From IMG/VR virus record IMGVR_UViG_3300006853_000001: 64,000 nucleotides of DNA; one strand, 5' to 3'. Shown here piece after piece: positions 10,426-42,503 of the stretch. The notes below the pieces were generated by a model that worked only from the letters and a program-made list of their open reading frames with translations, searched no databases and was not told where the DNA came from. A program made the position numbers and the translations under genes. How positions within the stretch are numbered: the first letter of the stretch is position 1; each line of letters starts with the position of its first letter. This DNA comes from a virus.

Positions 10426-10433
10426 CTCGCCTG

Positions 10434-10462: not shown

Positions 10463-10517
10463 TAAACGGACGGACCGGCTACGCCGGGTCCGGGACGATT
10501 CGGATGATCGATGGGAT

Positions 10518-10976
10518 GTGGTTCACGTGACAGGCACCCAGGACCTCGGCTACCGGGTAGGTGACGTCGTCGAGTTCATCCCCGGTACGTCCGCCCGCCG
10601 GGCGGGCTGGCGCTTTCGGGTCAAGAAGATCATGCAGGTCAACGTGCAGCTCGAGGTCCCGGGTGAGACCCGCGGCCTGCGAGCCGACCGTGAGATCGTG
10701 CGCCGCTGCCCCGGCGCCGAACCCAGGCGTCCCGGCGTGTCGGCGGCCGAGGCCACGCCGATCGCGTACCACCCGCCGCTGGTCACCGGCCAGTTCGTGA
10801 CCGTCGCCGGGCCCGGCTGGAAGCAGCCACTAGACGTGATCTACTCCGTCATCCGCGACAACGTCGAGAACGTCAAGCTGGTCAGGGCCGGCGGCGAGGG
10901 CGGCCGGTACTGGCCGAAGGTGCCGCGGGCGTACTGCACGCCCGTGACGGTGACCTTGACGGTTGTGACGTCGTGA
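10518..10976 (+). CDS. hypothetical protein
   Basis: The ATG at 10458 in the ORF track sits inside the -10 box, so a start downstream of the predicted transcription start is more likely. GTG 10518 marks the rise in GC3. Confidence 0.45.
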   Translation: MVHVTGTQDLGYRVGDVVEFIPGTSARRAGWRFRVKKIMQVNVQLEVPGETRGLRADREIVRRCPGAEPRRPGVSAAEATPIAYHPPLVTGQFVTVAGPGWKQPLDVIYSVIRDNVENVKLVRAGGEGGRYWPKVPRAYCTPVTVTLTVVTS

Positions 10977-14420: not shown

Positions 14421-15443
14421 TTGCTGTGTATAGTTGAGGGCCCGGACGGCGCGGGTAAGTCCACCCTCGTCGCCGCGGTCGCCGCCGCCCTCCGCGCCAC
14501 GTGTCCCCACGATGATGTGGAGGTCTGGCACGCCGGACCTCCACCTCCGGGCGCGCACCCGCTGGACCTGTACGCCCGGCCGCTGTACGACTATCGGCCG
14601 GGCGTCGGTCGTCACATCATCTGCGACCGGTGGCACGTCGGGGAGTGGGTGTACCCCGCCGTGTTCGGTCGCCCGTCCCGGGCGGATGAGGCGAGTCGCC
14701 GGTGGCTGGACATGTTCCTGCAGGCGCGTGGCGCCCTGTTAGTTCACGTGAACCCGCCGCTGTCACGTGTCGAGGCGCAGCTCCGAGCACGTGGCGACAG
14801 CACGGTTGTCCCCGGACAGCTACCCGAGCTGTTTCTCCGTTATCACGCCGAGGTCGCCCGGTCACGGCTGCGCCGGTGGCACCTGACACACGACAGCTGG
14901 TCGGCGGCCGGCGTCGCCGAGGTGGTTCTCGAGGAGGCACGACGCGCGGAGGATGAGGCTATCCCACTCGGCCGATTCGCCACGTACGCGGGTCCTGCGC
15001 GACCCCACTACCTCCTGCTGGGCGACGTGCGCCACCAGTTGCGCGACCGTGTTGGTTCGTTTTTAACACCTCGGCACAGCGTCGCGTACGGTCCGGCGTT
15101 TGGGCCGTATCCCGGCACGTCAGGCCACTACCTGTTAACGTACCTTCCCGAGGCGATGTTTCACGCCGGCGGCGACGCGGGCATCGGCGTCGCGAACGCC
15201 TGCGACGTGGATGACTGGAAGGATCTGTGGGACGTGCTCGGCGAACCACTGATCGTGACGCTGGGCGTACGTGCGACACGTGAGTTAGGATCATTCGCAC
15301 GAGGCTCGACGCCTCACCCGCAGTACGCACGGCGATTTCACTTTAACGACGCCGTCAGGTACGGTCAAGCGATCCACCGCGCGGGGCGATACGGGGAGCA
15401 CGTGCGTAGGTGGCACGATGTCGATACCACCGGTGAGAACTAA
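14421..15443 (+). CDS. fusion protein: thymidylate/dNMP kinase-like P-loop domain plus UDG-superfamily-like domain
   Basis: The N-terminus has VEGPDGAGKST (Tmk P-loop) and ICDRW (the DR motif). The C-terminus (about aa 185-320) carries UDG-like motifs in the expected order: YLLLGDVRHQ, GPAFGPYPGTSGHYLL, VANACD, IVTLGVRA, TPHPQY. Confidence 0.55.
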   Translation: MLCIVEGPDGAGKSTLVAAVAAALRATCPHDDVEVWHAGPPPPGAHPLDLYARPLYDYRPGVGRHIICDRWHVGEWVYPAVFGRPSRADEASRRWLDMFLQARGALLVHVNPPLSRVEAQLRARGDSTVVPGQLPELFLRYHAEVARSRLRRWHLTHDSWSAAGVAEVVLEEARRAEDEAIPLGRFATYAGPARPHYLLLGDVRHQLRDRVGSFLTPRHSVAYGPAFGPYPGTSGHYLLTYLPEAMFHAGGDAGIGVANACDVDDWKDLWDVLGEPLIVTLGVRATRELGSFARGSTPHPQYARRFHFNDAVRYGQAIHRAGRYGEHVRRWHDVDTTGEN

Positions 15444-15457
15444 GGTGAGAGATTAAC

Positions 15458-15667
15458 GTGAACTGCTCGAAGTGCAGCAACGGTGACTTACCGTACGAGT
15501 GGACGGTTACGGCGGACGGCGACCCACGGGACATCATACTGTATCGTGGTCCCGACGAGTTAGCCGCGCGTGCGACGCTCGCCGCGGAGACGCCGGTCAA
15601 CGGCTGGGGTGCGACGCTCACGCGTCGTCACGTCGGACCGAGTGAGATCATGGCAACCAACCGCTAG
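15458..15667 (+). CDS. hypothetical protein
   Basis: 69 aa ORF with GTG start after GAGAG. Confidence 0.45.
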   Translation: MNCSKCSNGDLPYEWTVTADGDPRDIILYRGPDELAARATLAAETPVNGWGATLTRRHVGPSEIMATNR

Positions 15668-15682
15668 ATAAGGAGATGCAAC

Positions 15683-16522
15683 GTGGGTGCTCTCATCGAG
15701 ATCGCCAACGGCGTTCGTGGCTACGGCGACTACGTGAATCACGTGCTCAACCGATCACATCCAAGAACCGCGCGCGGCCTGCCGACGCGTGACGCCGGTT
15801 TTACGGTGGTTGTGCTTCACGACGTCACCCAGTCGCTGCCACTCGATGTCGGTCGCCAGGTCAGCACAAAAATCGCGGCGCTGGAGGCGCTTCAACTCGT
15901 TGGAGGTCACTCGGATCCTCGGTCGCTGGTAGACGCCGCGCCGTTCTTCGGCGAGCTGCTGGAGCCCGACACCCGACGGTTTCACGGCGCATACGGCGAC
16001 CGAATTCGCGGCCAACTGGTCCAGGTTGTGACGAAGTTGCGCGAGGACCCCGGCTCACGGCAGGCCGTCATCACCCTGTGGGATCCGTGGCTGGACAACC
16101 AACCGGGCAAGAAGGACTACCCATGCACCGTTGCGATTGGGTTCGAGGTAGTTCGAGGTCGAGGCCTCGACATGAACGTCACCATGCGCAGTCAGGATGT
16201 CTGGCTCGGAACGCCCTACGACTGGTTCCAGTTCTCACTCCTTCAGATGACCGTTGCCCGACTACTTGGGGTCGAACCGGCGCTCTATCATCACACAACA
16301 TGGTCCACACACATCTACGAGCGTGATATCACAAAGCTCGACTGGCTGACCGATCCGCCACCCGCCGAGCATCGAACTCAGCAACCTCACACCGGTGTTG
16401 GAGAGGTTCTCGGCAACCCACACTCGACCACCCAGCGGGCACGTGACCTGCTGTTCGACGCCGTGAAGCCCGATGAGTTGTCCGTCTCCGAGAGGATCTT
16501 GCGTGACTGGCTCACCACCTAG
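15683..16522 (+). CDS. ThyA-family pyrimidine nucleotide C5 methylase/hydroxymethylase (Asp at the Asn177-equivalent position)
   Basis: RQAVITLWDP, YPCT (catalytic Cys148) and MRSQDVWLGTPYDWFQF align to E. coli ThyA SAWN, PCH and QRSCDVFLGLPFNIASY. Codon 16220-16222 (GAC) places Asp where ThyA has Asn177. Confidence 0.7.
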   Translation: MGALIEIANGVRGYGDYVNHVLNRSHPRTARGLPTRDAGFTVVVLHDVTQSLPLDVGRQVSTKIAALEALQLVGGHSDPRSLVDAAPFFGELLEPDTRRFHGAYGDRIRGQLVQVVTKLREDPGSRQAVITLWDPWLDNQPGKKDYPCTVAIGFEVVRGRGLDMNVTMRSQDVWLGTPYDWFQFSLLQMTVARLLGVEPALYHHTTWSTHIYERDITKLDWLTDPPPAEHRTQQPHTGVGEVLGNPHSTTQRARDLLFDAVKPDELSVSERILRDWLTT

Positions 16523-17027
16523 GGTTCGCCCGTCGTGGGACGAGACGTGGCTCGCGCAGGCGCGGGCCATCGGCGCGCGCAGCCTCTGCTCGCGCGCCCA
16601 GGTCGGTGCGGTCATCGTGTCCTCGGACAACAGCCGCACGTGGGTCGGGTACAACGGCGTCCCGGCGGGGTTCGAGCACAACGATCGGCCGTGCGTCGAG
16701 TGGTGCCCGCGCGCCCAGAAGTTTCGGCGCTTTAGCCCGTCATACGACGACTGCTACACGGTGCACGCGGAGGTCAACGCTCTGCTCAAGATGGACCGCG
16801 AGCTGGGTCGCGGCGGCACCCTCTACACGACGGGTGACGTCTGCTTCGCCTGTGCTAAGGTCGTAGCCAACTCGGGTCTGGCGACCGTGGTCGTGCTGTC
16901 GGACGGCCTCGCCGCCCACCGCAAGCCCGACGACACGTACCGGTTTCTCGAGAGGTGTGGGTTATCGGTCATCGTGCACACCGGTAACCTATCCGGTTCG
17001 GGTCCCGTGGTCACGTATAACGCGTAG
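16503..17027 (+). CDS. dCMP deaminase (cytidine/deoxycytidylate deaminase family)
   Basis: The zinc motifs HAEVNAL and CFACAKVV are present, and WDETWLAQA is a typical ComEB/dCMP deaminase N-terminus. GTG 16503 follows GAGAGGA; ATG 16473 is an alternative start. Confidence 0.75.
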   Translation: MTGSPPRVRPSWDETWLAQARAIGARSLCSRAQVGAVIVSSDNSRTWVGYNGVPAGFEHNDRPCVEWCPRAQKFRRFSPSYDDCYTVHAEVNALLKMDRELGRGGTLYTTGDVCFACAKVVANSGLATVVVLSDGLAAHRKPDDTYRFLERCGLSVIVHTGNLSGSGPVVTYNA

Positions 17028-25190: not shown

Positions 25191-25217
25191 GACTAACGTG
25201 TAGTACGACCGAGGTGA

Positions 25218-25275
25218 CCGGGTCCGGCGTCGCACCCGCGAGTCGGACCCGGCGCCGGTGCGCGTCGACGCGCAC
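25218..25275 (+). terminator. two stem-loops between the recombination genes and the glycosyltransferase operon
   Basis: A 9 bp stem pairs CCGGGTCCG (25218-25226) with CGGACCCGG (25244-25252). A perfect 18 bp palindrome GTGCGCGTCGACGCGCAC lies at 25258-25275. There is no U-tract. Confidence 0.4.
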
Positions 25276-25303: not shown

Positions 25304-26434
25304 GTGAAGATACTCATGCTGGTGCCTAACTTCTGGATCTCAGGCACCGTCACGCACATTCGCGAGCTGACGCTCGGCTGGCCGCCGGAGTGGCCGACGC
25401 CGCCGATCGCCGTGCCCACGCGTTCCGGCCGACCGTCCGGTAAGTGGGGACGCGACATCGCCGACGTGAAACGCGCCGACGCGACGACGTGGCGCCCGGA
25501 CCACTGGGGCACACCCGCCGAGATCGCACACCTGGCGCGTAACTTCGATCTCGTACACGTCAACGAGGCGGAGACGACACCGAGCTCGCAGGAGTGGTGG
25601 TACCAGACGCTCGAGCTCCTCGAGACGCCGTGGACGCTCCAGCTGAACGGAAACCTGTATCCGACCGTCAACTGGGACCGTATCCTCCGCTCGCCGCGCT
25701 CTACGGGCGTCATCTGGCAGACCCCGGGCAACGTGCCCGAGGCGCTCGTCCGTGACGACCGCGCGACGCTGGTGCCGCTATCTCGTCCCTGGAACCTGCG
25801 GTCGGCGACGTATGATCCTCCGGCCGGACCTGGAGGTGATAAGCCGCCGCTGGTCGGCTTCCACGGTCGTCTCGCGCCGGACAAGGGTGTGGCGCACGTT
25901 GCCGCGCTGGCCAAGCACCTCGACGTCGATGTCTGTCTTCACGGCGCGTCGCCGGGTGGCGGCTACCCCTACGCCTACGGTCTTCAACACACGTACCTCG
26001 GCGACCGGAAGTTTCGCGCGGAGGAGCCGTGGACCGCGCCTGATCTACCTCTACACTACGAAGGTCCCTACGGGGAGGGTTACGATGTGTCGCTGCATCA
26101 CACCGTGCACGTGTCGGCGACGCGTCTGGGCTTCTCGGCGGGTACCGAGTTCGCCCTGCTGGAGGCCATCGACGCGGGTTGTCGGATCGTCGTACCGGAT
26201 CACATGACCGAGCCCGCGACGCTCGGCGTGCTGCGGCAGTGGACGTACCCGTGGGAGCCGCGCGGCCTCAAGACCGCGCTGTCCGGCGAGCTGCGGTCGC
26301 TGAGTGAGGCGGTAAACCACGCGCTATACGTATCGTCATATGACGCCTCGCACAACCGGCAGGTGCTCGCTACGCACCACAACCCCGCCGCACTGGCCTG
26401 TGCGTTCTTCGGCGTCGCGGCATCCCGGATCTAG
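25304..26434 (+). CDS. GT-B fold glycosyltransferase (GT4-like)
   Basis: The N-terminus is MKILMLVPNF. LVGFHGRLAPDKGV is present, and the C-terminus has an E-x7-E-like motif (GTEFALLEAIDAGCRIVVPD). Confidence 0.65.
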   Translation: MKILMLVPNFWISGTVTHIRELTLGWPPEWPTPPIAVPTRSGRPSGKWGRDIADVKRADATTWRPDHWGTPAEIAHLARNFDLVHVNEAETTPSSQEWWYQTLELLETPWTLQLNGNLYPTVNWDRILRSPRSTGVIWQTPGNVPEALVRDDRATLVPLSRPWNLRSATYDPPAGPGGDKPPLVGFHGRLAPDKGVAHVAALAKHLDVDVCLHGASPGGGYPYAYGLQHTYLGDRKFRAEEPWTAPDLPLHYEGPYGEGYDVSLHHTVHVSATRLGFSAGTEFALLEAIDAGCRIVVPDHMTEPATLGVLRQWTYPWEPRGLKTALSGELRSLSEAVNHALYVSSYDASHNRQVLATHHNPAALACAFFGVAASRI

Positions 26435-26450
26435 AACGGAGGTGATAAGT

Positions 26451-27806
26451 ATGCGTGTTGGGTACGGAAAGATAGGAAGATCGATGCCGCTCAGCATCAC
26501 GAAGTGCGGTAGTCTCGGCGGCGACGTGGAGATGGCCGCGACGATCGGCGAACTCGCGCGGCGCAACCCGGAGTCAGACTTCTACCTCATCGGAAAGAAC
26601 AGCGGCGAGGAGCCCACGTCGGTCGGCCTGCCGAGCAACGTGCACAACCCGTGGATCAAGTGGGGTCCGCAGCTGCTCGACGCCAAGCGCCGTACCGGCT
26701 TGAATCACGCGAACTACTCCGTGGCCGACCACCTCGCTCTGCAAGACATCTATGACTCGGTAACGCTCGACTTCATAACGAAGCTCGACGGCATCGTACT
26801 CTGGGCCGGCCAGCACGGTACGACCAACGTGCCGCTGCCCGGCGTACGTGAACCCGGTAAGTACACCAAGCCACACGACTGGTCGGCGCACTACGTCGCG
26901 TTTCTGACACGAGCGATCAACATCTGGCGCGACGTCAACCCGTGGAAGCGCGAGGAGATCTGGCTCAACTCCGATCCGCGCAACTACCTCAAGTTACGCG
27001 ACCTCAAGTGGCCGCTGCGTCACCCGGTGCTCGCACAACACACGTATCATCACAGGATCAAGCACGCGCGGTACGGAGACCCGGGCCCGAACGGCGCTTT
27101 TGAGGAGTGGTCTGCCACGTGCGACCTCGGCGTCGAGACGCCGAGCGATGTCGATAAGGTGTGGAAGGCGTCCGTGCGGAATGTATACGCCCGGTTGGAG
27201 GTCAACGGTCTCTTGCCCAGCACACCGTTCGGCGACCTGCTGTCGTTCAACGACCGCTGGGAAGATCGCGCGGGGTTCGGCCTCTTCATGAATGAGACGC
27301 GACGCTACGTGCGCCAGGACATAACCCGGTCACACGTAATGCGTGAGTGGGTACTACCACTGGAACCGGCGTGGATTCACGGCACGTGGTCACAGGCCGG
27401 CCAGGAGGAGATCAACCGCGAGATCACCCCGGCACCGTGGGGCGACTACGTACCTAAGCTTCACTCCGTACGCTGTACCTTCACCTCACCGGCCAGCGGC
27501 ACCGGCTGGGCCACGGCTAAGCCGTGGGAAGCGTTCGCGGCCGGTACCGTGTGCTTCTTTCACCCCGGCTACGACGTCCAGGATAACATCCTCGGCGACG
27601 CACCGTTGTGGTTGAAGGACTGGCTGCGCGTCACCTCGCCCGACGAGTTGGTACACCGGGTTAAGCACCTCAGCTCAGACGCGGGTCGCACCGACTGGTA
27701 TGAGCTCGTAGCCGCCCAGCGCATACACTTCAATGACGCCGTTCGGGAGTTACGCTTTGCCCGGCTGATCGAAGCGCGCCTCGGGCTGCGAGGTACCGGT
27801 GACTAG
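26451..27806 (+). CDS. glycosyltransferase resembling T4 DNA beta-glucosyltransferase (GT63-like)
   Basis: By-eye alignment to T4 BGT gives four matches. MRVGYGKIGRS aligns with MKIAIINMGNN. IWLNSDPRN aligns with YLFTDIRL, the catalytic Asp100. NETRRYVRQ aligns with GSFRSGQRE, Arg191/Arg195. AKPWEAF aligns with LRVWETM, Arg269/Glu272. The spacings are similar. ATG 26451 follows GGAGGTGA. Confidence 0.55.
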   Translation: MRVGYGKIGRSMPLSITKCGSLGGDVEMAATIGELARRNPESDFYLIGKNSGEEPTSVGLPSNVHNPWIKWGPQLLDAKRRTGLNHANYSVADHLALQDIYDSVTLDFITKLDGIVLWAGQHGTTNVPLPGVREPGKYTKPHDWSAHYVAFLTRAINIWRDVNPWKREEIWLNSDPRNYLKLRDLKWPLRHPVLAQHTYHHRIKHARYGDPGPNGAFEEWSATCDLGVETPSDVDKVWKASVRNVYARLEVNGLLPSTPFGDLLSFNDRWEDRAGFGLFMNETRRYVRQDITRSHVMREWVLPLEPAWIHGTWSQAGQEEINREITPAPWGDYVPKLHSVRCTFTSPASGTGWATAKPWEAFAAGTVCFFHPGYDVQDNILGDAPLWLKDWLRVTSPDELVHRVKHLSSDAGRTDWYELVAAQRIHFNDAVRELRFARLIEARLGLRGTGD

Positions 27807-28593
27807 GGGATCGTCGGGCGCCACGTTCCGGTACTACCTCGAGAGCGTCGGCAAGATGTGCCGGACGGACGACGGGCGTACATCACGCCAGGGACTGTGG
27901 TTACGTCAGCACCAGTCTCCCGCCGTTCCGAAGGTACTGTCGGTATATGAGCACGGCTACCAGATGGAGCGGCTCGACGACATCTCTTACATGTGGTTAA
28001 ACCACCGTGTGGTGCTCGCCGGGATCGTGGAACAACTCGAGCAGCACGTGTGGTCACAGTCCGCCGAGGTCGAGTGGTCACAGCAGGCGACGGTCGACAA
28101 GGTGGCAGACCTACTCGGAATGTTCGACGTCGGTGTTGAGGTTCAGCTGTGGCTGGAAAAGACGCACGAGTCGATCGACTGGAACGCACTTCCACGGTGC
28201 CTAACGCACGGCGACCCGACGCTGGACAACGTGATGTTTAGGCCCGGTACATCCGAACTGGTCATCATCGACCCGGTTCCCGCGACCTCGGCGGTGCCCG
28301 ACATCCGGGCTGTGGACCTCGGTAAGATGCTCCAATCAGCGCTGGGCTGGGAGCGGGTTCGGTACGGCTACCGTGAGGTAACGGGAGCTCTCGACACGCT
28401 CGGTGGCAGTGCGCGAATCAACCCGTACCACGTGCAAACGTACGCGCAAGATGATAACGAGTGGAACGCGGCCGTACTCTGGTGCGTCATTCACCTACTA
28501 CGCACCCTACCCTACCTCGCACGATGTGCGGCACCTAAGGTTCAAGATGACGTGAGAGGCATGATCGGTGACGCAACTACGTTTCTTCCTTGA
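27799..28593 (+). CDS. APH/choline-kinase-fold small-molecule (sugar?) kinase
   Basis: The Brenner motif is present in CLTHGDPTLDNVMF, with the metal-binding Asp in LVIIDPV. Confidence 0.65.
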   Translation: MTRGSSGATFRYYLESVGKMCRTDDGRTSRQGLWLRQHQSPAVPKVLSVYEHGYQMERLDDISYMWLNHRVVLAGIVEQLEQHVWSQSAEVEWSQQATVDKVADLLGMFDVGVEVQLWLEKTHESIDWNALPRCLTHGDPTLDNVMFRPGTSELVIIDPVPATSAVPDIRAVDLGKMLQSALGWERVRYGYREVTGALDTLGGSARINPYHVQTYAQDDNEWNAAVLWCVIHLLRTLPYLARCAAPKVQDDVRGMIGDATTFLP

Positions 28594-29179
28594 TCTGGAT
28601 GGCACACTCGCCGACACCGACGCGCTTAACCGGGAGGCATATCGACGAGTTGGTGTTGAGGTACCGCCGAACGCCGCCGGCTTGTCATACCGTGAGTGGC
28701 TCGGCGATCTGGTCGGTATCGGTGATGTTGAGCGTGTTCACACCGCTAAGCAGGTGTGGTACGGCATCCTGCTGGGTGACGTAGATCCGCACACCTTAGC
28801 TCTGCCGCCGACCCGACTCGCACGTACCCTGCTGTACGGTGATGCTCGGCGGTCGGCGACCGTGTCGTGTCTAACGGCTGCGTCACACGAGTGTGCACGT
28901 ACCCTACTTCGTCGACTAGGTCTAAGCGTACCCGTCAAGCCACAGTTAACGTATGACGCACGACGCGTGATTTTGTCGCGTGCGATGTCCGTCGCCAAGC
29001 ATCGAGGTACCGGTTCCGTGGTATATGTTGATGACATGGGCAGCACCGTCGAGCGACTCACCGAGGACGTTCCGGGTCTCCGGTTGCTGCACTACACCGG
29101 GCAAACCTACGAGCAACTACGCGCCGAGCTCGCCGATGTCTTAGGAGAACTTATCACCAGAGAGTTGAAAACAGCGTGA
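28568..29179 (+). CDS. HAD-superfamily phosphatase/phosphomutase
   Basis: Motif I is FLDLDGTLADTD (DxDxT) and motif IV-like is VVYVDDMG. Confidence 0.7.
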   Translation: MTQLRFFLDLDGTLADTDALNREAYRRVGVEVPPNAAGLSYREWLGDLVGIGDVERVHTAKQVWYGILLGDVDPHTLALPPTRLARTLLYGDARRSATVSCLTAASHECARTLLRRLGLSVPVKPQLTYDARRVILSRAMSVAKHRGTGSVVYVDDMGSTVERLTEDVPGLRLLHYTGQTYEQLRAELADVLGELITRELKTA

Positions 29180-29862
29180 TCGACCACGCCGGGTTGGACG
29201 CCGTGATTCTCGCCGGTGGTAAGAGTGAGCGACTGAACGGGGTGGTACCTCCCTACTTCAAGCCGTTCGTCGTCATCGAGGGCAGGTCGCTGCTGGTCGC
29301 CGCGGTGGATAGCGCGCTGGCGATGGGTGCGCGTCGGGTGATCGTGGTGTCCGCCGGCGAGAACGCCCTGCCGGTGTTTCAACTGGTGGGTCACCGCCCG
29401 GAGATTCGCGTGATGCTGGCCACCGGCGGACCCGGCCGCGCGCTTCGCCGAGGTCTCGAGCTGTGTCAAACACAACGCGTTCTGGTGCTGATGAGCGACA
29501 ACATCCACGGACCCGAGGACGTCTACGCGGTATGCACGGCGGCGAACTACGCGGTCGGCGTGCGAGTCGTTCACCGGGTTGAGGCCGAGAGGTTTACTCG
29601 TCTCCGAGGCGACCGCTGGGTGGAGCGTAGATATGACCAAGACCCGCTCGATGATGAGGTAGCGAAATGGAGCGACGACGCTACACAGGCGGTAACGGTC
29701 TGGTGCGGCCCGCTGGTCATCGACCGGTACCGCGGTCTCAACGCACTGGCCGGCCAGGAGAAGATCGGTCCGGTGCTCAATGAGATGGCGCCCAGCTTCG
29801 CGCTGGTACACGTGTTAACGCAGGATATCGGCACGCCCGACGCGGTACGCCGGGTGACCTAG
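29176..29862 (+). CDS. nucleotidyltransferase (MobA/IspD/sugar-phosphate NTP-transferase fold)
   Basis: AVILAGGKSERL is the LAGGxGxRL signature, and VLVLMSDN is present. The start shows a GTGA overlap. Confidence 0.65.
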   Translation: MIDHAGLDAVILAGGKSERLNGVVPPYFKPFVVIEGRSLLVAAVDSALAMGARRVIVVSAGENALPVFQLVGHRPEIRVMLATGGPGRALRRGLELCQTQRVLVLMSDNIHGPEDVYAVCTAANYAVGVRVVHRVEAERFTRLRGDRWVERRYDQDPLDDEVAKWSDDATQAVTVWCGPLVIDRYRGLNALAGQEKIGPVLNEMAPSFALVHVLTQDIGTPDAVRRVT

Positions 29863-29874
29863 GAAAAATGAGAG

Positions 29875-30057
29875 ATGATGCGAGCAGGTAAGCTGACCCC
29901 GCGCCAGCGCCGGCGCGCGGCTAAGAAGAGTACGGCTGCCGCCGAGCGTCGTAAACACAACTACATCGATCAGCTGATCGAGGCGCGGGCACATCGCGCC
30001 GCGCGTAGGACAATGATAAGTGCAATGCGTGATGCTCGGAAGAAACTGGTGAGTTGA
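29875..30057 (+). CDS. small basic protein
   Basis: 60 aa, rich in Lys and Arg; ATG follows GAGAG. Confidence 0.45.
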   Translation: MMRAGKLTPRQRRRAAKKSTAAAERRKHNYIDQLIEARAHRAARRTMISAMRDARKKLVS

Positions 30058-30569
30058 TGGATCGCCTCGAGGAGATGTTACACGCCCAGCGGGAGCTCCA
30101 GGAGCTGATCAACGGCTACACGCTCGAGAGTCAGTCAGACGAGCTGCGCATCGCGAACATCAAGGAGAGCTACGTCGCGCTTATCAAGGAGCTCGGCGAG
30201 GTTCTGGATGAGATTGGCTGGAAGAGCTGGGCGACCAGTCGTCACATCAACTACGAGGCGGCACGCGGCGAGGTCGTTGACTGCTGGCACTTTCTCATGA
30301 ACCTCGCGCTGCACCTTAACGTGACCGCAGATGACCTGTACGAGGGCTACCGCCGAAAGCGTGAGAAGAACGAGCGACGCCAGCGCGAGGGCTACGACGG
30401 TGTGACGGGCAAGTGCCCGCACTGTCGACGGTCGTACGATGACCAAGGAGTCCGGTGCACCCCGTCGTGTGTCGCGACCGGCGGAACGCCGGCCTGGTGC
30501 GTGGAAGCCGGTCGGCTGGTCGGACCCGGTACACTCTCCGCTACATCAGAAACCACCCACAACACCTGA
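30057..30569 (+). CDS. all-alpha NTP pyrophosphohydrolase (MazG / dimeric dUTPase-dCTPase family) with Cys-rich tail
   Basis: Contains ALIKELGEVLDEIGWKSW and EVVDCWHFLMNLA, the paired acidic helices typical of the family. The C-terminus has CPHCRRSYDDQGVRCTPSC. Confidence 0.6.
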   Translation: MDRLEEMLHAQRELQELINGYTLESQSDELRIANIKESYVALIKELGEVLDEIGWKSWATSRHINYEAARGEVVDCWHFLMNLALHLNVTADDLYEGYRRKREKNERRQREGYDGVTGKCPHCRRSYDDQGVRCTPSCVATGGTPAWCVEAGRLVGPGTLSATSETTHNT

Positions 30570-30582: not shown

Positions 30583-31215
30583 ATGGGAACAAACCCGAGT
30601 CGCAACCGTGGACGCACGGTTAAAGCGTTTCACAAAGCGTACGGTTACGGTCCCTGGTCGTGTTTCTTCTGTGTGATTCCGGTGCTAGAGATTGGGCGTG
30701 GCACATGGAACGGTAACATTCATCACATTGATGATGATGTTACGAATGACACCGCAGATAATCTCGCGATGACACACGTGCTTTGTCACCGAAAACACCA
30801 CGGGCTGTCTGACGTCGCAAGAAGTAAGCTAAGTGATGCGTTTCGCGGACGTGAGTCACCTACGAAAGGTATGCGGTTCTCCGCAGAGGTGAATGCCAAG
30901 AAAGCGCATCACGGATCAGACAATCACCAGTTTAGAAAACCACTACCACTTCACACACGACAAGCTATCAGCCGCGCCAACCGGCGAATGGTGATTTGTG
31001 AAATGTGTGGTGTCGAGATCGCAGCGCACTGGATTCGTCGGCACCAGGCAAGTGGTTGCCAGCCGAAAAAGTGCATCACAGTCAACGGTGTTGTGCGTGT
31101 GCGTGGTATCGAGCCTAAGGTGATCTGCCAGGTATGCGGTAAACCTTATGCATCCCGCTGGATGCAACGCCACAAGGACAACGGAATGTGTGTACCTATG
31201 GACGTGAACACATGA
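30583..31215 (+). mobile_element. HNH endonuclease gene (free-standing homing-endonuclease-like)
   Basis: The HNH core is GNIHHIDDDVTNDTADNLAMTHVLCHRKHHG. Two repeated CxxCG...W..RH fingers are present. GC content is clearly lower than the flanks, and the stop overlaps the methyltransferase start (ATGA). Confidence 0.75.
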
Positions 31216-32482
31216 CATACACCGCGGTGGACGTTCTTGGGTTTGCTGGAGGTTTTACCCTCGGGATGGTCCAGGCGGGCTTTAAACTGGTTGGTAAGAA
31301 GGAACTTCCAGGCGGCTTCGGTGTAGCAAACTGTCTCGCTAATCGCGCACTTCTTGGTAATAGTTGGCAGGCACAGATAGGACCTGCCGAGTCGTGGGAG
31401 GTGATCAGTGGGGGTTGTGATGTTGTATTCGGCAACCCCCCGTAAGACCGTGCTCAGGATTTTCCGTCATGAGCGCCAAGTCATTTCGCGGAGCAAACTC
31501 TAAAGTGAACGCGTGTATGTGGGCATTTGCCGACTACGTCATTCGAGCACGTCCCACGATCGCCGTCTTCGAGAGCGTTCAGCAGGCGCGCAACCGCCCC
31601 GACGGTCTGGATCTCATGCGCCGGCTGCGCGCCCACGTGGAGGAGGACACCGGCGACCGGTGGACGCTCTACCACGTCCGGCACAACGCGTATTCGGTGG
31701 GCGGATGTGCCCAGCGGAAGCGCTACTTCTGGCTCATCTCGCGGGTTCCGTTCGGCGTCGAGGTGCCACAGCCGAGAACACTGCCCGTACTGGCAGACGT
31801 GATAGCAGACCTCGCGCCTCTCGGGCGGACGTGGCACGCGCAGCCGTACCGGGCACCCGTCACACACATGTGGACGGAGCAGCTGCGGTCGGCGTCCGGC
31901 GCAGTGGACGGCCACGTTCACGTCAGCAACCCACTCACACAGCGAGTGGCCGACCTGATCGACGGCTGTGGCTGGGAGCCCGGCGCGTCGCTGGGTGAGA
32001 TCTGTCGCCGGTACTACGAGAAGCACGGCCGGCTACCGGCGTCGATGGCACAGGGTGAGGCTAAGATCGTCGCCAACGACTTCGCGATGGGTTTCACGAC
32101 CGTGACGCGCTGGCGCGGCGAGCAGCCGGCGCGCGTCATTACCGGCGCGTCGCTGCAGCTGGTCATTCACCCGTGGCTCGACCGCATGATCACACACCGT
32201 GAGGCCGCGCGCATCCTCGGCTTCCCGGACGACTGGCTGATCAAGCCACTGCGCGGCGTCAGCGGTCTCAATCTCACGTGGGGAAAGGGAATATCTGTGC
32301 ACTGCGGCCGGTGGATCGGCGGGTGGATCGCCCGCGCGCTGGACGGCAACCCCGGCACTCACGTAGGATCTCTGATCGGCGAGCGTGAGTATGATATCGA
32401 TGTGACGCACGCCTGGAAGAGCGCCGTCTCGCGCAGCAGCGTGGTCGCGCGAGACGATACCGCTGTAGATGTGCTAATGTAG
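31212..32482 (+). pseudogene. DNA (cytosine-5)-methyltransferase, reading frame broken at a C6 tract just before the catalytic Pro-Cys
   Basis: Motif I is VLGFAGGFTLG. The frame ends ...VVFGNPP-TAA at 31443. The -1 frame continues PPVRPCSGFS (motif IV), then FESVQQ (ENV-like), QRKRYFW (QxRxR), THREAARILGFPDDW and GKGISV. The C run is at 31436-31441. Confidence 0.75.
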
Positions 32483-32841: not shown

Positions 32842-32888
32842 GCGGAGACGACCGCACGGAGGTACTTCCGGTGGACGCAGACACGCGT

Positions 32889-32929
32889 GAGGACCGGGCG
32901 CTCGTGGCGGCCCGGTCCTCGTGCGTTTT
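32889..32929 (+). terminator. rho-independent terminator
   Basis: The stem pairs GAGGACCGGG(CGC) with (GCG)GCCCGGTCCTC and is followed by GTGCGTTTT. Confidence 0.6.
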
Positions 32930-37369: not shown

Positions 37370-37394
37370 CCGTCGGGACCTCAGGTCCCGACGG
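37370..37394 (+). terminator. perfect 11 bp stem / 3 nt loop hairpin
   Basis: The sequence is CCGTCGGGACC-tca-GGTCCCGACGG, lying 30 nt after the DUF932 stop. There is no U-tract (I-shaped, actinobacterial style). Confidence 0.5.
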
Positions 37395-37805: not shown

Positions 37806-38924
37806 TCAAACACGGTACCGGGCAACCTCTCCGGCCAACCTACGCTCGGTCTCGAACGCGTCGGCCCAGGCCTCCGCCCAGCGCCACGTGTTGCCCTCCG
37901 TCGTCCAGTTCGCCGCGATTTCGCGTCCTCGACCAGACAGTTCATCACGTGCGTCACGACTCTCGACCAGAGACCTCAGATGCCGTAACCAACGCTTCGG
38001 TTTATCTGCGATCAGACCTACGCCCAGCCGGTGAAAGCGTAAGTACTCCGGACTCGGCGACGCGACCCACGGCACACCCAGCGCCGCGTACTCCAACGGC
38101 TTGAGCCACGACTTTCCGTCGTTGAATTTCGTCGCCGCCAGCGGTGCGACTCCGACGCCCAGTTTAGCGACCTCCGCAGGCCAGCCGACCAGCGGATCCT
38201 GCGGTCCGGTGTTCGTAGGCTCGACATCCAGCCGTAGCGCGTCCCGGACCCCGATGCCGTCACCTACCACGTGGAACGGCGTTCCGGTGTCTCGAGACAA
38301 CTGAGCTAGTGCGGTTCCCGTTGCCTGAAGGTCATCCGGGTGAGAGTGCGTTGAACCTGCCCAACCTACTACCGTCGAGTCTACCCGCTCGACCGCGAGA
38401 TAGCGCGCCGGCACACAGTTGTACAGGATCCTGCCGCGTCCGTGCGGTGCATACCGCGTCAGCAACGCGTCCGTGGACACGGTGACGAAGGTGGCCTCCT
38501 CGCACGCTCGCTGGGCGTACTGCCAGTTATGATCCTTGCTTGCGCCGAAGACCGGGTGCATGGCGGCAAACGCGGGATTGTTCGGATTCACAGCGGCGAG
38601 GTCGTCGTCCATGTCGATCACCACTGCGATGCCACGCCTACGCAGCATGCCGATCGCATCCACCAGGTGCTTGTGTGTGATGCGTTGCAAAATGATCATA
38701 TCGGCGTCCTCGGGTACCTGGACGTCTACGAGTTTACCGTCCGCGTCCACCCGTCCCTGGAACGCGGCGTTTCGATCCTTGGGCATAACAATGACAACGT
38801 CGTGTCCGTCTGCATGAAGCTGTCGTGCGGGCCATATTAGCCGGTGATACCCACACCCGTGTTCATCGGCGGGATACACGTACGTTTTCACAGGTTGTGT
38901 CCACCTCTCCGCGTAATCCACCAC
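37806..38924 (-). CDS. GT-B glycosyltransferase (group 1-like)
   Basis: Contains VGWAGSTHSHPDDL, FHVVGDG and KFNDGKSWLKPLEYAALGVPWVASP. It is a paralog of the gene at 41514-42500. Confidence 0.65.
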   Translation of the reverse strand: MVDYAERWTQPVKTYVYPADEHGCGYHRLIWPARQLHADGHDVVIVMPKDRNAAFQGRVDADGKLVDVQVPEDADMIILQRITHKHLVDAIGMLRRRGIAVVIDMDDDLAAVNPNNPAFAAMHPVFGASKDHNWQYAQRACEEATFVTVSTDALLTRYAPHGRGRILYNCVPARYLAVERVDSTVVGWAGSTHSHPDDLQATGTALAQLSRDTGTPFHVVGDGIGVRDALRLDVEPTNTGPQDPLVGWPAEVAKLGVGVAPLAATKFNDGKSWLKPLEYAALGVPWVASPSPEYLRFHRLGVGLIADKPKRWLRHLRSLVESRDARDELSGRGREIAANWTTEGNTWRWAEAWADAFETERRLAGEVARYRV

Positions 38925-38979
38925 GTGAGTGCGAGAATCACGACGCCGAGTAGAGCTCCTAGCGCTACTTGCCCGGTCA

Positions 38980-39576
38980 CTACCACCTGTCCGGCCTTCC
39001 CGAGGTGTTCTTGCCGTCGTGGTTCCAGATCCACGTCACCTCAGGTACGTGGTGAAAACGCGCACCGGCGTCCAGCAACCGGACGTAAAAGCCCCAGTCG
39101 TCGTAGTCGATCTCCACCCCGACCGGCGGCCCGAATTGTGCGCTGCACGCGAGCTCCGATCGCACCAGACTGGTCACCGGGATATACGACTTCTCACGCA
39201 GTAGCGCGGCAGAGAACTCCTGACCGAAGCGTCCCCACTCCTCCCGGAGAGGTATCTCATTTTCGTCCTTATCCAAGACCTGGCAGCCCGAATACACGAC
39301 GTCGGAATTGGTTAGCTCGGCAGCCTCCAGCAGCACGTTCACGTGATGCGACAGCCACCGGTCATCATCGTCCAGAAACGCGACCCACTCGGTGTCCACG
39401 CGTGACAGCGCACGGTTTCGCGTCGCGGCCGAGCCGGTGTGCTCGACGTCCACCTCGACGGCGATGGCGGTAACCCGCTGAGTCTGAACCGCCACGCTCT
39501 TCACCGCCGTCGCCAGGGCGTTGGGTCGGGTCGGGATGTGCGGGATGACCGCCGTAACGTCTCGCGGAAAGTTCAC
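38980..39576 (-). CDS. GT-A (family 2-like) glycosyltransferase, tandem paralog 1
   Basis: Contains VTAVIPHIPTRP, SAATRNRAL and WVAFLDDDD (DxD). The C-terminus is SGRPDRW. Confidence 0.65.
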   Translation of the reverse strand: MNFPRDVTAVIPHIPTRPNALATAVKSVAVQTQRVTAIAVEVDVEHTGSAATRNRALSRVDTEWVAFLDDDDRWLSHHVNVLLEAAELTNSDVVYSGCQVLDKDENEIPLREEWGRFGQEFSAALLREKSYIPVTSLVRSELACSAQFGPPVGVEIDYDDWGFYVRLLDAGARFHHVPEVTWIWNHDGKNTSGRPDRW

Positions 39577-39579
39577 GTT

Positions 39580-40149
39580 CTACCACCTATCAGGTTGTCC
39601 AGAGGTATTGTGTCGGTTGTGCCGCCAGATCCACGTAACCTCGGGGACGTGTGTGAACTGTGCGCCGGCGCGAAACGCACGCTGCTGAAAACCCCACTCA
39701 TCCCACTCGTTCGTGAACTTAACCCGCTGTGCCAACTCGGTACGCACCAGCATCGTAACGGTGATGTAAGGTCGAACGAACAGCAGCTCCGGATCGAACG
39801 GCTGACCGAACGGGTTCCACACCACCTCGTTGGCCTCGTTCGTGACGATGCAGTTTGTGTAGACGACATCAGCTCCGGTCCGCTCCGCGTGATCCAGCAG
39901 CGTCTCGATGTGATGCGGCAACCAGAGATCATCGTCGTCGAGAAACGCCACCCACGACGTGTCTGCTGCTGCCAACGCGCGCGTGCGCGTCACAGCAGAT
40001 CCCTCGCGCTGTGTGTCCACGGCGATGCTGATCCCACGCACTGAACGGCTCTGCGCGGTGACGCTCTCCAGCGCCTGCACCAGTACGTGCGCCCGCGGCG
40101 GTACGCTGGGGATCACGGCTGTGACGTCGCTCGGAAAGCTTGCTACCAC
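39580..40149 (-). CDS. GT-A (family 2-like) glycosyltransferase, tandem paralog 2
   Basis: Contains VTAVIPSVPPRA, SAVTRTRAL and WVAFLDDDD. The C-terminus is SGQPDRW. Confidence 0.65.
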   Translation of the reverse strand: MVASFPSDVTAVIPSVPPRAHVLVQALESVTAQSRSVRGISIAVDTQREGSAVTRTRALAAADTSWVAFLDDDDLWLPHHIETLLDHAERTGADVVYTNCIVTNEANEVVWNPFGQPFDPELLFVRPYITVTMLVRTELAQRVKFTNEWDEWGFQQRAFRAGAQFTHVPEVTWIWRHNRHNTSGQPDRW

Positions 40150-40712
40150 CTAGTAGCCAGTCCGCTGGTGTTACCGGAGTGCACCGCGTAACACCACGTG
40201 ATATCACCGGTACCTATGAACTTACCACCTAGCTCGAGACATCGCAACGTGAATCGCCAGTCCTCACCGGGCCACACGTCATTCTCGTCCTCGTGGTTTC
40301 GGAAGCCGGCCTCACGGGCCAGCTCCGTTCGCACCATGACGGTCATCGTTGTGTGGTGCGGATCGGACGGATTCATCTGCCGTCCCCGGTGCATCGGAAA
40401 CGGGTTGTTGCCGTCAAACCACGAGTAACAGTATGACGCGTCGTGATCTGCGGCTAGCTTCATCAGCGTCTCGAGGTGATGTGGGTAGAAGTAGTCATCA
40501 TCATCCAAGAACGCCACCCACTCCGTACGCACGGCATCCAGCGCACGCTGCCGGGTAGCCGCGGCACCCTCCTTCAACACGTCTAAGGCGCACGAGATGC
40601 CGCCGGATGGTTGCCTAGTCTGGTCCTTGACGCTCTGAACGGCACGGTTGAGGAGACCGCCGACGCGCGGCGGAATGGTCGGCAGCGCGACTGTGACCGA
40701 AACCTTACTCAT
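40143..40712 (-). CDS. GT-A (family 2-like) glycosyltransferase, tandem paralog 3
   Basis: Contains VTVALPTIPPRV, AAATRQRAL and WVAFLDDDD. The C-terminus is SGLATRW. ATG 40712 follows GGAG; the ORF track start at 40763 overlaps the upstream gene. Confidence 0.6.
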   Translation of the reverse strand: MSKVSVTVALPTIPPRVGGLLNRAVQSVKDQTRQPSGGISCALDVLKEGAAATRQRALDAVRTEWVAFLDDDDYFYPHHLETLMKLAADHDASYCYSWFDGNNPFPMHRGRQMNPSDPHHTTMTVMVRTELAREAGFRNHEDENDVWPGEDWRFTLRCLELGGKFIGTGDITWCYAVHSGNTSGLATRW

Positions 40713-40713
40713 C

Positions 40714-41001
40714 CTAGCTCCACTCATAGTCCACGACAGCCCCACCCTCATCTCGCACGACACCCGTCGGTTTATCGATCGACGAAAGTGTGTTCGACAG
40801 CTCTACACGCAAGTCGGCTGCCAACTTCGGCAGGCCCATCTCGCACGCGTCGGCGTAGGCGTTTAACGCTGCCCGCGCGTATGGGTCGTGCACGTAGTCC
40901 AGGACGAAGTAGCGGGCGCCGGCCTTGTCACCGCCGGGGCGATCTCGGCCGTCGACCCGTTGAACACGGTACCTACTCTGCAGACCGTCGTTCTCACTCA
41001 C
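40714..41001 (-). CDS. hypothetical protein
   Basis: GTG 41001 overlaps the upstream stop (GTGA). The 95 aa product contains ARYFVLDYVHDPYARAALNAYADA. Confidence 0.45.
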   Translation of the reverse strand: MSENDGLQSRYRVQRVDGRDRPGGDKAGARYFVLDYVHDPYARAALNAYADACEMGLPKLAADLRVELSNTLSSIDKPTGVVRDEGGAVVDYEWS

Positions 41002-41513
41002 GCCCACCTCACTCCACTCACGACGCACTGCCACGCCGGTCCCCGGTACGCGATCGGCCAGTCCGGCGGCACCGTATGCATATACACCTCGGATACCTCG
41101 CACCATCCCGCATCCCGCATCATATCGATGATCTTGCCTGGTGTGCACTCCCAGTGGTGCACGTCTCCGCTCCAGCGCCCGGCACCGTCGCGCAACTCTC
41201 CCAGGGTAATGTCAATAAGCGTTCCCGCGTCGGCCATCGCCTGCGCGCGGTCGAGGTCTGGCCCTACGACGAGCAACTGGCCACCCGGCACTGTGCAGTC
41301 GAGCAGCCGCGTTAGCAGGGCGACGCACTGCTGTGGCATTAGGTGTTCCAACACGTGGCCCGCGTAGATGCGTTCGATCGTCAGTGGCGCCCACGGCAGC
41401 TCGCCGGTGAGGTCGACCTCCAGGTCCTTCGGGTGCGGAGAACCGAAGTCGACGTTAACCCACCCCGGGGCGTACTGGTCACCGCAGCCGAGATTAAGTC
41501 TCACAGCTAGCAC
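40998..41513 (-). CDS. class I SAM-dependent methyltransferase
   Basis: Motif I is LNLGCGDQYAPGWVNVD, followed by IYAGHVLEHL. Confidence 0.65.
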   Translation of the reverse strand: MLAVRLNLGCGDQYAPGWVNVDFGSPHPKDLEVDLTGELPWAPLTIERIYAGHVLEHLMPQQCVALLTRLLDCTVPGGQLLVVGPDLDRAQAMADAGTLIDITLGELRDGAGRWSGDVHHWECTPGKIIDMMRDAGWCEVSEVYMHTVPPDWPIAYRGPAWQCVVSGVRWA

Positions 41514-42500
41514 TCAGTTCGCTTCATACGCTCTCTCCCACAAGTGAATGTGCTTACCAATCGTAGCGCGACGCGCACTTTCACGTGCCGCGGTACTCAT
41601 CGGCCCACGCATCGTGTCATCGGTGAGCGCATCTAGCGCATCCAGCCACTCGCCGAACGTGTCGACGATAAAGCCGTTCACGCCGTGCTGGACCCAGTCC
41701 GGATACTGACCCCACCGCGTGGCGATGACCGGTGCTCCGCGCGCCGCGTACTCGAGCGGCCGGGTCCACGACTTACCTCGGTTGTGCGACGTCCGGTTGA
41801 GCGGTGCCAGACCGATATCGATGTCAAACGACGCGAGGTGCGCGTTGTGTGTCTGGTATCCACTAACCCGTGCACGACCTTCCAGACGCCCGTCGGTGTA
41901 GTCGGAGCCGAGAGCGTGGAAGGTCGCACGCGGCTGCGTAGTCAGGTACTTGACGAGGACCTCAGTAAGCCTCTCGGCCTCCCAGTCGTGCCTGTGGAAC
42001 GGCGAGCCGGCCCAGCCGACAGTCAGTCGGTCTGGCGTCGTCAGCAGCGGACGCTCGACCGTGATAGCATCGACGCAGATCGGCAGCACGTGCACATTGT
42101 CGTTGAGCTCGGTGTACCGCTCGGCGACGTACGGCGTGCATGTCGTTACGACGTCGGCCGCCTGGACGTTTCTCTTCGTGTCCTCCGAGAGCGGCGCGTA
42201 GATCGAGTACGGCACCTCGTTCTCGGGATCCAGCCAGATGAGGTCGTCGTCCGCGTCGTAGACGGTAAGTACGTTCGGATCGGCGCACAGCGCCAGCCAC
42301 TCGGGATTCGAACCGGCAAGCCGCTGGCCGATCACAACATCGTAGTCGTGAATGTCCGGCGGAGGTGGTCCCCACGTCGCCGCCCAGCGGGTCGTGTCGA
42401 GCGCCTCAAGTGGTAGCTTGATCCTGTAGATGAAACAGGCGTCCACAGCCGTAATCCACGCGAAAACTCGACGCCTCACCGTCACAGCATGCCACCCCAC
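41514..42500 (-). CDS. GT-B glycosyltransferase (group 1-like)
   Basis: Contains TVGWAGSPFHRHDW and NRTSHNRGKSWTRPLEYAARGAPVIAT. It is a paralog of the gene at 37806-38924. Confidence 0.65.
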   Translation of the reverse strand: MGWHAVTVRRRVFAWITAVDACFIYRIKLPLEALDTTRWAATWGPPPPDIHDYDVVIGQRLAGSNPEWLALCADPNVLTVYDADDDLIWLDPENEVPYSIYAPLSEDTKRNVQAADVVTTCTPYVAERYTELNDNVHVLPICVDAITVERPLLTTPDRLTVGWAGSPFHRHDWEAERLTEVLVKYLTTQPRATFHALGSDYTDGRLEGRARVSGYQTHNAHLASFDIDIGLAPLNRTSHNRGKSWTRPLEYAARGAPVIATRWGQYPDWVQHGVNGFIVDTFGEWLDALDALTDDTMRGPMSTAARESARRATIGKHIHLWERAYEAN

Positions 42501-42503
42501 TTT

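Follow-up and report, generated by a model that had tools for sequence, protein, structure and literature searches.

The stretch of 64,000 nucleotides from IMG/VR virus record IMGVR_UViG_3300006853_000001 that we analyzed (hereafter, the window) contains a cassette of five genes, g1 to g5, encoding two glycosyltransferases of the GT-B fold, a kinase, a HAD hydrolase, and a nucleotidyltransferase (Table 1). The five open reading frames (ORFs) are co-directional and tightly packed on the + strand between positions 25316 and 29862, with spacings of +16 nt (g1/g2), -8 nt (g2/g3), -26 nt (g3/g4), and -4 nt (g4/g5). An independent gene caller, applied to an identical contig from Logan, returned the same five genes with ATG start codons at 25316 for g1 and 26451 for g2. 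Thus, the five consecutive, partly overlapping genes listed in a preliminary description of this DNA were recovered, and the motifs quoted there are all present: CLTHGDPTLDNVMF in the kinase, FLDLDGTLADT in the HAD hydrolase, and VILAGGKSERLNG in the nucleotidyltransferase.

The cassette lies in a long array of early and replication genes on the + strand (~10-37 kb). It is located 3' of the genes for PolA, an SNF2 helicase, and a PDDEXK exonuclease, and between the Sak4/DUF669 recombination genes on one side and the genes for dUTPase_2 and a DNA C5-methyltransferase on the other, that is, among replication and nucleotide-metabolism genes and not in the structural module. Downstream of g5, a 60-aa ORF begins after 12 nt and is followed, with an overlap of 4 nt, by the dUTPase_2 gene, with no terminator-like site. 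Because g5 runs on unbroken into these two genes, the cassette belongs to a larger transcription array and is not the self-contained operon that had been proposed. The two strong stem-loops described upstream of g1 are real by fold, with a minimum free energy of the RNA of -62 kcal/mol (z -4.2) for the region. They extend from 25213 to 25256 and, as a perfect 18-nt palindrome, from 25258 to 25275. No T tract accompanies them, a terminator scan made no call there, and from 24 to 31 kb the number of promoter and terminator sites did not exceed that in shuffled sequences. Further strong hairpins occur at 37370-37394 and 32883-32926, in or beside short intergenic gaps of the + strand array. The arms are perfect and 12 nt long in the hairpin that follows the DUF932 gene and 17 nt long in the other.

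The window has a G+C content of 63% and represents a segment of a phage genome, with the portal, major capsid, tape-measure, and tail genes on the - strand (37.8-64 kb). Because it carries WhiB and DUF932 genes, and because capsid similarity (32-37%) is limited to phages of Gordonia, Rhodococcus, Streptomyces, and Mycobacterium, the sequence points to an uncultured high-GC actinophage without a cultured close relative. Neither megablast with the cassette nor tblastn with g2, g3, g5, and two distant kinases gave a match among 50,697 phage records. Sequence identical to the window is found in Logan on metagenome contigs measuring 35 and 90.5 kb, and contigs of up to ~103 kb are listed in the protein tables for identical g2 and g3 products. 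Adjoining the portal gene, the - strand encodes a protein with an ADP-ribosyltransferase exoenzyme domain (62838-63956; Pfam E = 8e-25).

Table 1. Coordinates of the features discussed in the text
Feature	Position	Strand	Basis or remark
P-loop nucleotide-kinase-like protein, candidate modified-dNMP kinase	14421..15443	+	weak Thymidylate_kin/AAA P-loop matches
Thymidylate-synthase homologue, predicted dCMP hydroxymethylase	15683..16522	+	Pfam Thymidylat_synt E 1e-23
Two adjacent stem-loops	25213..25275	+	within the 125 nt that separate g1 from the DUF669 (SSB-like) gene
g1, GT-B (GT4-like) glycosyltransferase, 372 aa, optional second transferase	25316..26434	+	alternative GTG start at 25304
g2, GT-B glycosyltransferase, 451 aa, core transferase of the clade, proposed 5-hydroxymethylcytosine-DNA glycosyltransferase	26451..27806	+	fold and synteny
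g3, minimal APH/ELK-fold kinase, 264 aa, proposed sugar(-phosphate) 1-kinase	27799..28593	+	Pfam APH E 1.1e-6
g4, HAD hydrolase with C1-type cap, 203 aa, proposed sugar-phosphate phosphatase	28568..29179	+	HAD motifs
g5, short sugar-1-phosphate nucleotidylyltransferase, 228 aa	29176..29862	+	Pfam NTP_transf_3 E 1.9e-13
Dimeric dUTPase/MazG-type NTP pyrophosphatase (dUTPase_2), candidate dCTPase/dUTPase excluding canonical nucleotides	30054..30569	+	phrog_18650 E 4e-40
Second glycosylation set: phrog_7162-type glycosyltransferase (361/372 aa), three Glycos_transf_2 proteins (~190 aa each), GT1 (328 aa), sugar C-methyltransferase (411 aa)	37806-43739	-	adjoins tail genes

Enzymes encoded by the cassette

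In the arabinosyl-5-hydroxycytosine pathway of the phages RB69, DLP3, and HY126, AfhE is a MurU-like nucleotidyltransferase fused to an APH-like kinase. It phosphorylates arabinose 5-phosphate (Ara5P), with the kinase product reported as the 1,5-bisphosphate, and later forms UDP-arabinofuranose; the HAD phosphatase AfhF removes the 5-phosphate, and GT-B enzymes move the arabinose to DNA (PMC13326640). By profile comparison, the g3 family is homologous to the C-terminal kinase domain of AfhE. With hhalign, it matched the kinase half of RB69 gp52:53 with a probability of 96.8% (E = 2e-10) and seven AfhE-type kinase domains from Straboviridae with 97.5% (E = 5.8e-12, 175 columns), and the motifs HGDPxxxN, IDP, and D..(A/G)K.L....G(W/Y)(E/D) are common to both groups. 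Within the g3 family itself, HGDPTxDN, IDP, K19, and YxMER are invariant across 37 homologues. All 68 homologues found are phage or metagenome proteins, and tblastn detected no member of the family in cultured phage records. A PDB profile search with g3 gave Bud32/TP53RK and fructosamine-3-kinase only, both weakly; similarity to AmgK or NahK was not detectable, and the PHROG and NCBIfam searches gave nothing usable for g1 to g4. The preliminary description had stated that a clear assignment of the kinase to antibiotic phosphotransferases would speak against a sugar pathway. As far as sequence allows a judgment, such an assignment is rejected: the control comparison of the g3 family with APH(3')-IIa reached a probability of 9%, and no APH enzyme appeared among the PDB profile matches.

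The profile placement of the nucleotidyltransferase, which had also been suggested as a check, led to the sugar-1-phosphate enzymes. The g5 family profile matched RmlA (1e-17), HddC over its full length (residues 1-220; 4e-17), GlmU, GalU, and MurU (1e-8) in the PDB, and all 40 family members sampled matched the Arch_glmU sugar-1-phosphate nucleotidyltransferase model. The family is small, with only 264 relatives among 1.8 billion representatives, and LAGGKSERL, K29, and D108-N109 are invariant, in agreement with the superfamily's N-terminal G-x-G-x-R-L loop, conserved Lys, and central Asp. We conclude from these profiles that g5 is a predicted member of the sugar-1-phosphate nucleotidylyltransferase superfamily (RmlA/GlmU/HddC/MurU). 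No specific substrate can be assigned because no equivalog threshold is approached: the MurU model of NCBIfam gave E = 0.013 and 15 bits against a cut-off of 250, and no other NCBIfam equivalog cut-off was reached. The similarity of g5 to RB69 gp53 is N-terminal only (probability 88%). When g5 was searched as a single sequence, the IspD and MocA models scored best (E = 1e-7), and choline kinases belong to the APH-fold kinases. Both points would fit a kinase and a nucleotidyltransferase acting on an alcohol that is not a sugar (choline, ethanolamine, glycerol, or ribitol phosphate, as in LicA/LicC, TarI, or IspD) to yield a CDP-alcohol for DNA or teichoic acid. We consider this highly improbable, as the g5 family profile scores far better against RmlA and HddC, with LicC and IspD not in the top 60 PDB matches, the sampled family members uniformly match sugar-1-phosphate models, and the partner enzymes are GT-B glycosyltransferases, not phosphotransferases.

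For g4, profile searches gave weak HAD matches only, but all four catalytic HAD motifs are present, namely DxDGT (D9, D11), T103, R132/133, and DD155-156, and the same holds for the homologue in the related locus L050 (sampled loci are numbered with the prefix L). The PDB matches, likewise weak, were CbbY, the sugar phosphatase TM1254, and beta-phosphoglucomutase (beta-PGM). A role as mutase is less likely than one as sugar-phosphate phosphatase. A g4 homologue separates the kinase gene from the nucleotidyltransferase gene in L050, L056, L057, and L058.

Searches of Pfam, PHROG, and NCBIfam returned no significant match for g1 or g2, and the GT-B assignment made earlier for both was borne out at the level of fold only, with AlphaFold2 (AF2) models and Foldseek. 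The g1 model reached a predicted local distance difference test score (pLDDT) of 87 and matched 7fg9 (tll1591; E = 7e-9), 2jjm (BshA), TarM, GtfA, and GlgM, as well as the DNA glycosyltransferase 9ir0 of phage HY126 (E = 1e-5). The donor-helix motif TEFALLEAIDAGC is invariant in g1, whose homologues number only 16, all from related phage contigs and within replication modules. The g2 model, built from an alignment of homologues (pLDDT 88), matched PimA, MshA, BshA, OleD, and the HY126 DNA glycosyltransferase in the PDB with E values of 1.6e-6 to 5e-5; its GT-B donor-helix motif is KPWEAFAAGTVCF. Two proteins of uncultured phages in BFVD matched g2 far better. The best is uncharacterized (E = 5e-21), and the second (E = 2e-17) carries the name DNA beta-glucosyltransferase. 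We found 575 homologues of g2 with 50-70% identity, every one metagenomic. A search of 185,579 genomes in GTDB, bacterial and archaeal, yielded no g2 relative and indicated no host. The absence of the family from these genomes, together with the lack of a flippase and of membrane segments in the five cassette proteins, all soluble, disfavors modification of the host envelope by a temperate phage; envelope modification had been offered as an alternative. Serotype conversion of the Gtr type was rejected, as the cassette encodes no membrane proteins.

A conserved transferase and exchangeable predicted donor genes

For comparison, we sampled 44 IMG/VR loci with g2, plus several Logan, ENA, and NCBI contigs that were retrieved by exact look-up; in all, g2 occupies the same slot in ~50 related viral contigs. 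In nearly all loci covering the flanks, the slot of g2 follows Sak4 and DUF669 and precedes dUTPase_2, with the C5-methyltransferase gene further 3'; in four loci, g2 is found just after dUTPase_2 instead. Every locus that reaches far enough contains, 5' of PolA, genes for a P-loop kinase, a thymidylate-synthase (TS) homologue, and a dCMP deaminase.

Two different gene sets were observed beside g2. In 32 loci, it is accompanied by a GT75 NDP-pyranose mutase of ~350 aa (profile against MtdL, E = 2.7e-55), and 21 of these also encode a short-chain dehydrogenase/reductase (SDR) nearest to GDP-L-fucose synthase and GDP-mannose 3,5-epimerase. Mutase-type occupants of the slot, present in most relatives (L003, L004, L006, L009-L047, and L052), imply that a phage replication module supplies an NDP-hexofuranose donor. 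The kinase/nucleotidyltransferase set stands beside g2 in 11 loci, nine of them distinct and the window's own contigs included. In a first survey, a HAD gene was seen inside this set only in the window and in L050/L051; it was found later in L058 and many further loci. The mutase set and the kinase set are mutually exclusive, with zero co-occurrence. Because two exclusive sets swap at this place next to g2, the slot encodes the donor supply for g2. In a neighbor-joining tree of g2, the kinase-type loci fall at three separate places, which requires at least two swaps and argues that donor modules have been exchanged under a conserved transferase. The g1 gene is optional, mobile within the replication module, and found with either donor set.

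Further phage groups were reached through distant homologues of the kinase, and DNA-modification genes surround the cassette and its relatives in every case. About 30 loci have the order Sak4, DUF669, a g1-like transferase of 414 aa, kinase, HAD, nucleotidyltransferase, a 336-aa protein, dUTPase_2, and methyltransferase. This group comprises L057, L059-L082, and L085-L088; the 336-aa protein is conserved and has no Pfam match. In ~8 loci, kinase, HAD, and nucleotidyltransferase are followed by a g2-like transferase. Some 18 loci from unrelated phages combine a 5-hmU DNA kinase domain (HMUDK_hel), one or two TET-associated glycosyltransferases (Pfam TAGT), the kinase, sometimes the HAD hydrolase, the nucleotidyltransferase, and a TS homologue. 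The TS of L056, the only one checked of these ~18, keeps N177 and has L143D, the pattern of a dUMP hydroxymethylase. The HMUDK/TAGT group (L056, L089, L090, L096, and L098-L111) is a candidate system for glycosylated 5-hydroxymethyluracil (5hmU). In L056, the nucleotidyltransferase gene is followed by one for a 215-aa protein (9934-10581) that has a sulfotransferase-like P-loop start (GNMRCGTTW) and no Pfam match.

Candidate acceptor genes and the proposed pathway

Next to the enzymes of the cassette, the window encodes a set of proteins that may provide the acceptor. The block from 14421 to 17027 on the + strand, 5' of PolA, contains the P-loop kinase, the TS homologue, and the dCMP deaminase, and is kept across the clade. 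In E. coli ThyA numbering, C146 and D169 are retained, and L143D and N177D are present, in the TS homologues from the window and from 20 related loci. The N177D exchange sets dCMP specificity in ThyA homologues (Lee et al. 2026, PMC13326640), an acidic residue at position 143 accompanies hydroxymethylation, and D169N is a mark of 5-hydroxy-dCMP synthases (PMC13326640). Because L143D and N177D are combined with a retained D169, these residues predict a dCMP hydroxymethylase. 5-Hydroxycytosine (5hoC) as the acceptor was rejected, since neither the window nor any of the 20 related loci has lost D169. A TET/JBP dioxygenase as a source of 5-hydroxymethylcytosine (5hmC) was likewise not found, with no such Pfam family in any of the neighborhoods. 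The best PDB match of the P-loop protein is YorR (2axp/3kb2; E = 2e-3); a structural match to YorR has been reported as well for gp78 of DLP3, a nucleotide kinase encoded beside a TS homologue (PMC13326640). The dUTPase_2 protein, kept after the glycosylation slot throughout the clade, matches the dimeric dUTPase 1w2y (E = 3e-7).

From this gene context, we infer 5hmC in DNA as the acceptor, and the cassette probably provides the glycosylation in a cytosine hypermodification system of the T4 type, through which a lytic actinophage makes an NDP-sugar and glycosylates 5hmC in its own DNA. According to this model, the TS homologue would make 5-hydroxymethyl-dCMP, and the P-loop kinase and the NTP pyrophosphatase would favor the incorporation of 5-hydroxymethyl-dC into DNA. 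For the donor, by analogy with AfhE and AfhF, g3 would phosphorylate C1 of a sugar phosphate drawn from central metabolism, g4 would take off the distal phosphate, and g5 would couple the resulting sugar-1-phosphate to an NTP. After replication, g2 would move the sugar onto the hydroxyl group of 5hmC, and the optional g1 may add a second sugar or use a second linkage. The proposal that kinase, HAD hydrolase, and nucleotidyltransferase make an NDP-sugar for the adjacent transferases, probably for DNA, was already part of the preliminary description and is supported by the g5 profile, the homology of g3 to the AfhE kinase, and the DNA-modification context. As to the sugar, our guess would be a pentofuranose, because NDP-furanoses are the product of the other donor module and a phosphate at position 5 locks a pentose in the furanose form. 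Ribose from ribose-5-phosphate is one such candidate, because no isomerase was found: the Pfam matches recorded for genes called on the identical contig at 5.7-53.7 kb of the window do not include the SIS domain of arabinose-5-phosphate isomerase, and neither do those of a selection of larger ORFs toward the ends of the window, which covers all but ~26 kb of the 90.5-kb contig. A tblastn search of 56 kinase-bearing loci for the RB69 isomerase gave no match.

Several observations weigh against this reading. The signature rule for TS homologues is an empirical one, and with a dCMP deaminase encoded next to the TS homologue, the product might be diverted to 5hmU. A DNA C5-methyltransferase is kept beside the slot in the clade, which would be odd if all cytosines were replaced. 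On the transferase side, profile comparison revealed no similarity of g1 or g2 to RB69 gp46:47 or to each other; the T4 alpha- and beta-glucosyltransferases were not among the top 50 PDB matches of g2, and there was no Pfam match of the T4 type. The g4 protein shows no similarity to RB69 gp51, has a long C1-type cap, and appears to belong to a HAD subfamily other than that of AfhF. Finally, the larger set of glycosyltransferases near the tail genes could also consume a phage-made NDP-sugar, and the bisphosphate route is not obligatory, because L028 and L030-33 have kinase and nucleotidyltransferase without a HAD gene and L046 has the nucleotidyltransferase alone.

In the window, the C5-methyltransferase gene (31188-32482, + strand) is split. 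Its first ORF ends with ...VVFGNPP*, where an 8-nt insertion, TAAGACCG (31443-31450), lies directly 5' of the catalytic Cys codon, and the gene resumes in another frame from 31469. The relatives have an intact enzyme with GNPPCSG(W/F)S; the split reflects either a pseudogene or a fault of the assembly. An HNH endonuclease gene (30583-31215, + strand) that separates this broken gene from dUTPase_2 occurs in few relatives only (L006 and L052) and looks like a mobile insertion.

The loci that lack a HAD gene or consist of the nucleotidyltransferase alone would also fit a DNA target with a different donor chemistry. In one variant, g3 would be an anomeric kinase acting on a free sugar, with g4 only freeing this sugar from its phosphate, which corresponds to an earlier reading in Table 1 of PMC13326640 ('dephosphorylates Araf5P to Ara, phosphorylates Ara to Araf1P'). 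In another, g3 would phosphorylate a non-anomeric hydroxyl group, and g4 would be a beta-PGM-like mutase giving the sugar-1-phosphate; the weak similarity of the C1-cap HAD protein to beta-PGM and to sugar phosphatases is compatible with both roles of g4. A third variant has g2 using a host donor and g1 alone using the phage-made one. Taken together, these variants appear rather unlikely to us. The kinase domain of AfhE, to which g3 is homologous, is reported to act on Ara5P with formation of the 1,5-bisphosphate. Moreover, the slot of the mutase/epimerase relatives holds g2 as its only transferase; because no other transferase is present there, g2 must use the mutase/epimerase product in those phages.

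A transfer of the NDP-sugar not to DNA but to virion proteins (capsid or tail, as in mycobacteriophages) or to host cell-wall polymers is suggested by two findings. The second glycosylation set, which probably glycosylates virions, could use a donor made by the phage, and the Foldseek matches of g1 include TarM, GtfA, and SdgB, that is, teichoic-acid and protein O-glycosyltransferases. We regard such a transfer as quite improbable. The cassette resides in the replication and not in the structural module, g2 always occurs with a TS of the hydroxymethylase type, and the kinase-HAD-nucleotidyltransferase trio accompanies HMUDK and TAGT DNA-modification genes in other phages. The missing membrane segments and flippase count against it as well. 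In addition, the first - strand glycosyltransferase is found at the locus edge of L003 and L004, the relatives that were checked, and these have the other donor module.

If DNA glycosylation by the cassette is correct, the principle of a phage-made donor extends to phages of actinobacteria, and g1 and g2 represent two sequence-novel GT-B families of candidate DNA glycosyltransferases. Donor-supply genes would then swap as modules beneath a conserved transferase, and the three-gene sugar-activation module, found with cytosine- and thymine-type pathways, could serve as a metagenomic marker of glycosylated DNA. In that case, genomes of such phages may also be under-represented or mis-assembled in sequencing data. 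DNA hypermodifications of phages decide on attack by restriction enzymes, CRISPR nucleases, and type IV systems, and the enzymes that make them serve as tools, such as T4 beta-glucosyltransferase in the mapping of 5hmC. It is conceivable, although on balance doubtful, that in a large clade of uncultured soil actinophages, 5hmC takes the place of cytosine and carries unusual sugars, probably furanoses, whose donors come from interchangeable cassettes, either GT75 mutase plus GDP-sugar epimerase/reductase or the portable trio shared with 5hmU/TAGT/HMUDK systems. From a common sugar phosphate, for example ribose-5-phosphate, the trio may form an NDP-sugar foreign to the host, which would amount to a hypermodification not yet described chemically. 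To our knowledge, the only phages known up to 2025-26 to make donor sugars for DNA were arabinosyl-cytosine Straboviridae and a Rhizobium phage. The strategy has been described recently, and in the literature searched it is not yet reported for this phage group.

Comparison with known systems

The preliminary description had likened the trio to AmgK/MurU/MupP, NahK, or LicA/LicC. The general logic of kinase, (phosphatase), and sugar-1-phosphate nucleotidyltransferase is indeed that of AmgK/MurU, NahK, and HddA/GmhB/HddC, and g5 aligns over its full length with HddC and over its N-terminal half with MurU. However, an equivalog-level match to AmgK/MurU or NahK is lacking, with MurU far below its cut-off, g3 shows no detectable similarity to AmgK or NahK and gave no match to LicA, HddA is a GHMP kinase whereas g3 has the APH fold, and LicC does not appear among the leading PDB matches. 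AfhE and AfhF are closer.

The donor modules of most relatives point to a different set of enzymes. The GT75 mutases Hyg20 and MtdL form GDP-L-fucofuranose and GDP-L-galactofuranose in antibiotic pathways of actinomycetes (PMC9937993), and the slot of most relatives holds an MtdL-like GT75 mutase with or without an SDR resembling GDP-fucose synthase. In contrast to these pathways, the context is one of phage replication genes and not an antibiotic cluster, and the window itself has neither the mutase nor the SDR.

T-even phages employ the dCMP hydroxymethylase gp42, the dNMP kinase gp1, the dCTPase gp56, and alpha- and beta-glucosyltransferases. Counterparts in the window are the TS homologue with L143D and N177D, candidates for nucleotide kinase, NTP pyrophosphatase, and dCMP deaminase, and one or two transferases of the GT-B fold inside the replication module, with the second-best viral model for g2 being named DNA beta-glucosyltransferase. 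Unlike the T-even system, g1 and g2 are not sequence-detectable relatives of the T4 glucosyltransferases, the pyrophosphatase is of the dimeric dUTPase type, and the clade also has a C5-methyltransferase. T4 takes UDP-glucose from the host and has no donor pathway of its own. The preliminary description had called an own donor more elaborate than the T-even strategy; phage-made donors are no longer without precedent among relatives of the T-even phages.

The closest characterized system is the arabinosyl-5-hydroxycytosine pathway of RB69, DLP3, and HY126. As in these phages, a ThyA homologue and a YorR-like nucleotide kinase are encoded in the same replication array as the GT-B transferases, and the donor is predicted to be made by the phage with a kinase, a HAD hydrolase, and a sugar-1-phosphate nucleotidyltransferase, the kinase being homologous (hhalign 97.5%). 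Some Foldseek matches of g1 and g2 recur among the ones published for the DNA transferases (3mbo, 7fg9, 7qsg, and the HY126 glycosyltransferase). The systems differ in that g3 and g5 are separate genes with g4 between them, whereas kinase and nucleotidyltransferase are fused in AfhE, and in that g4 appears to come from another HAD subfamily and the transferases share no sequence similarity. Furthermore, the TS of the window keeps D169, predicting 5hmC instead of 5hoC, and the phage is not a member of the Straboviridae, its host being an actinobacterium.

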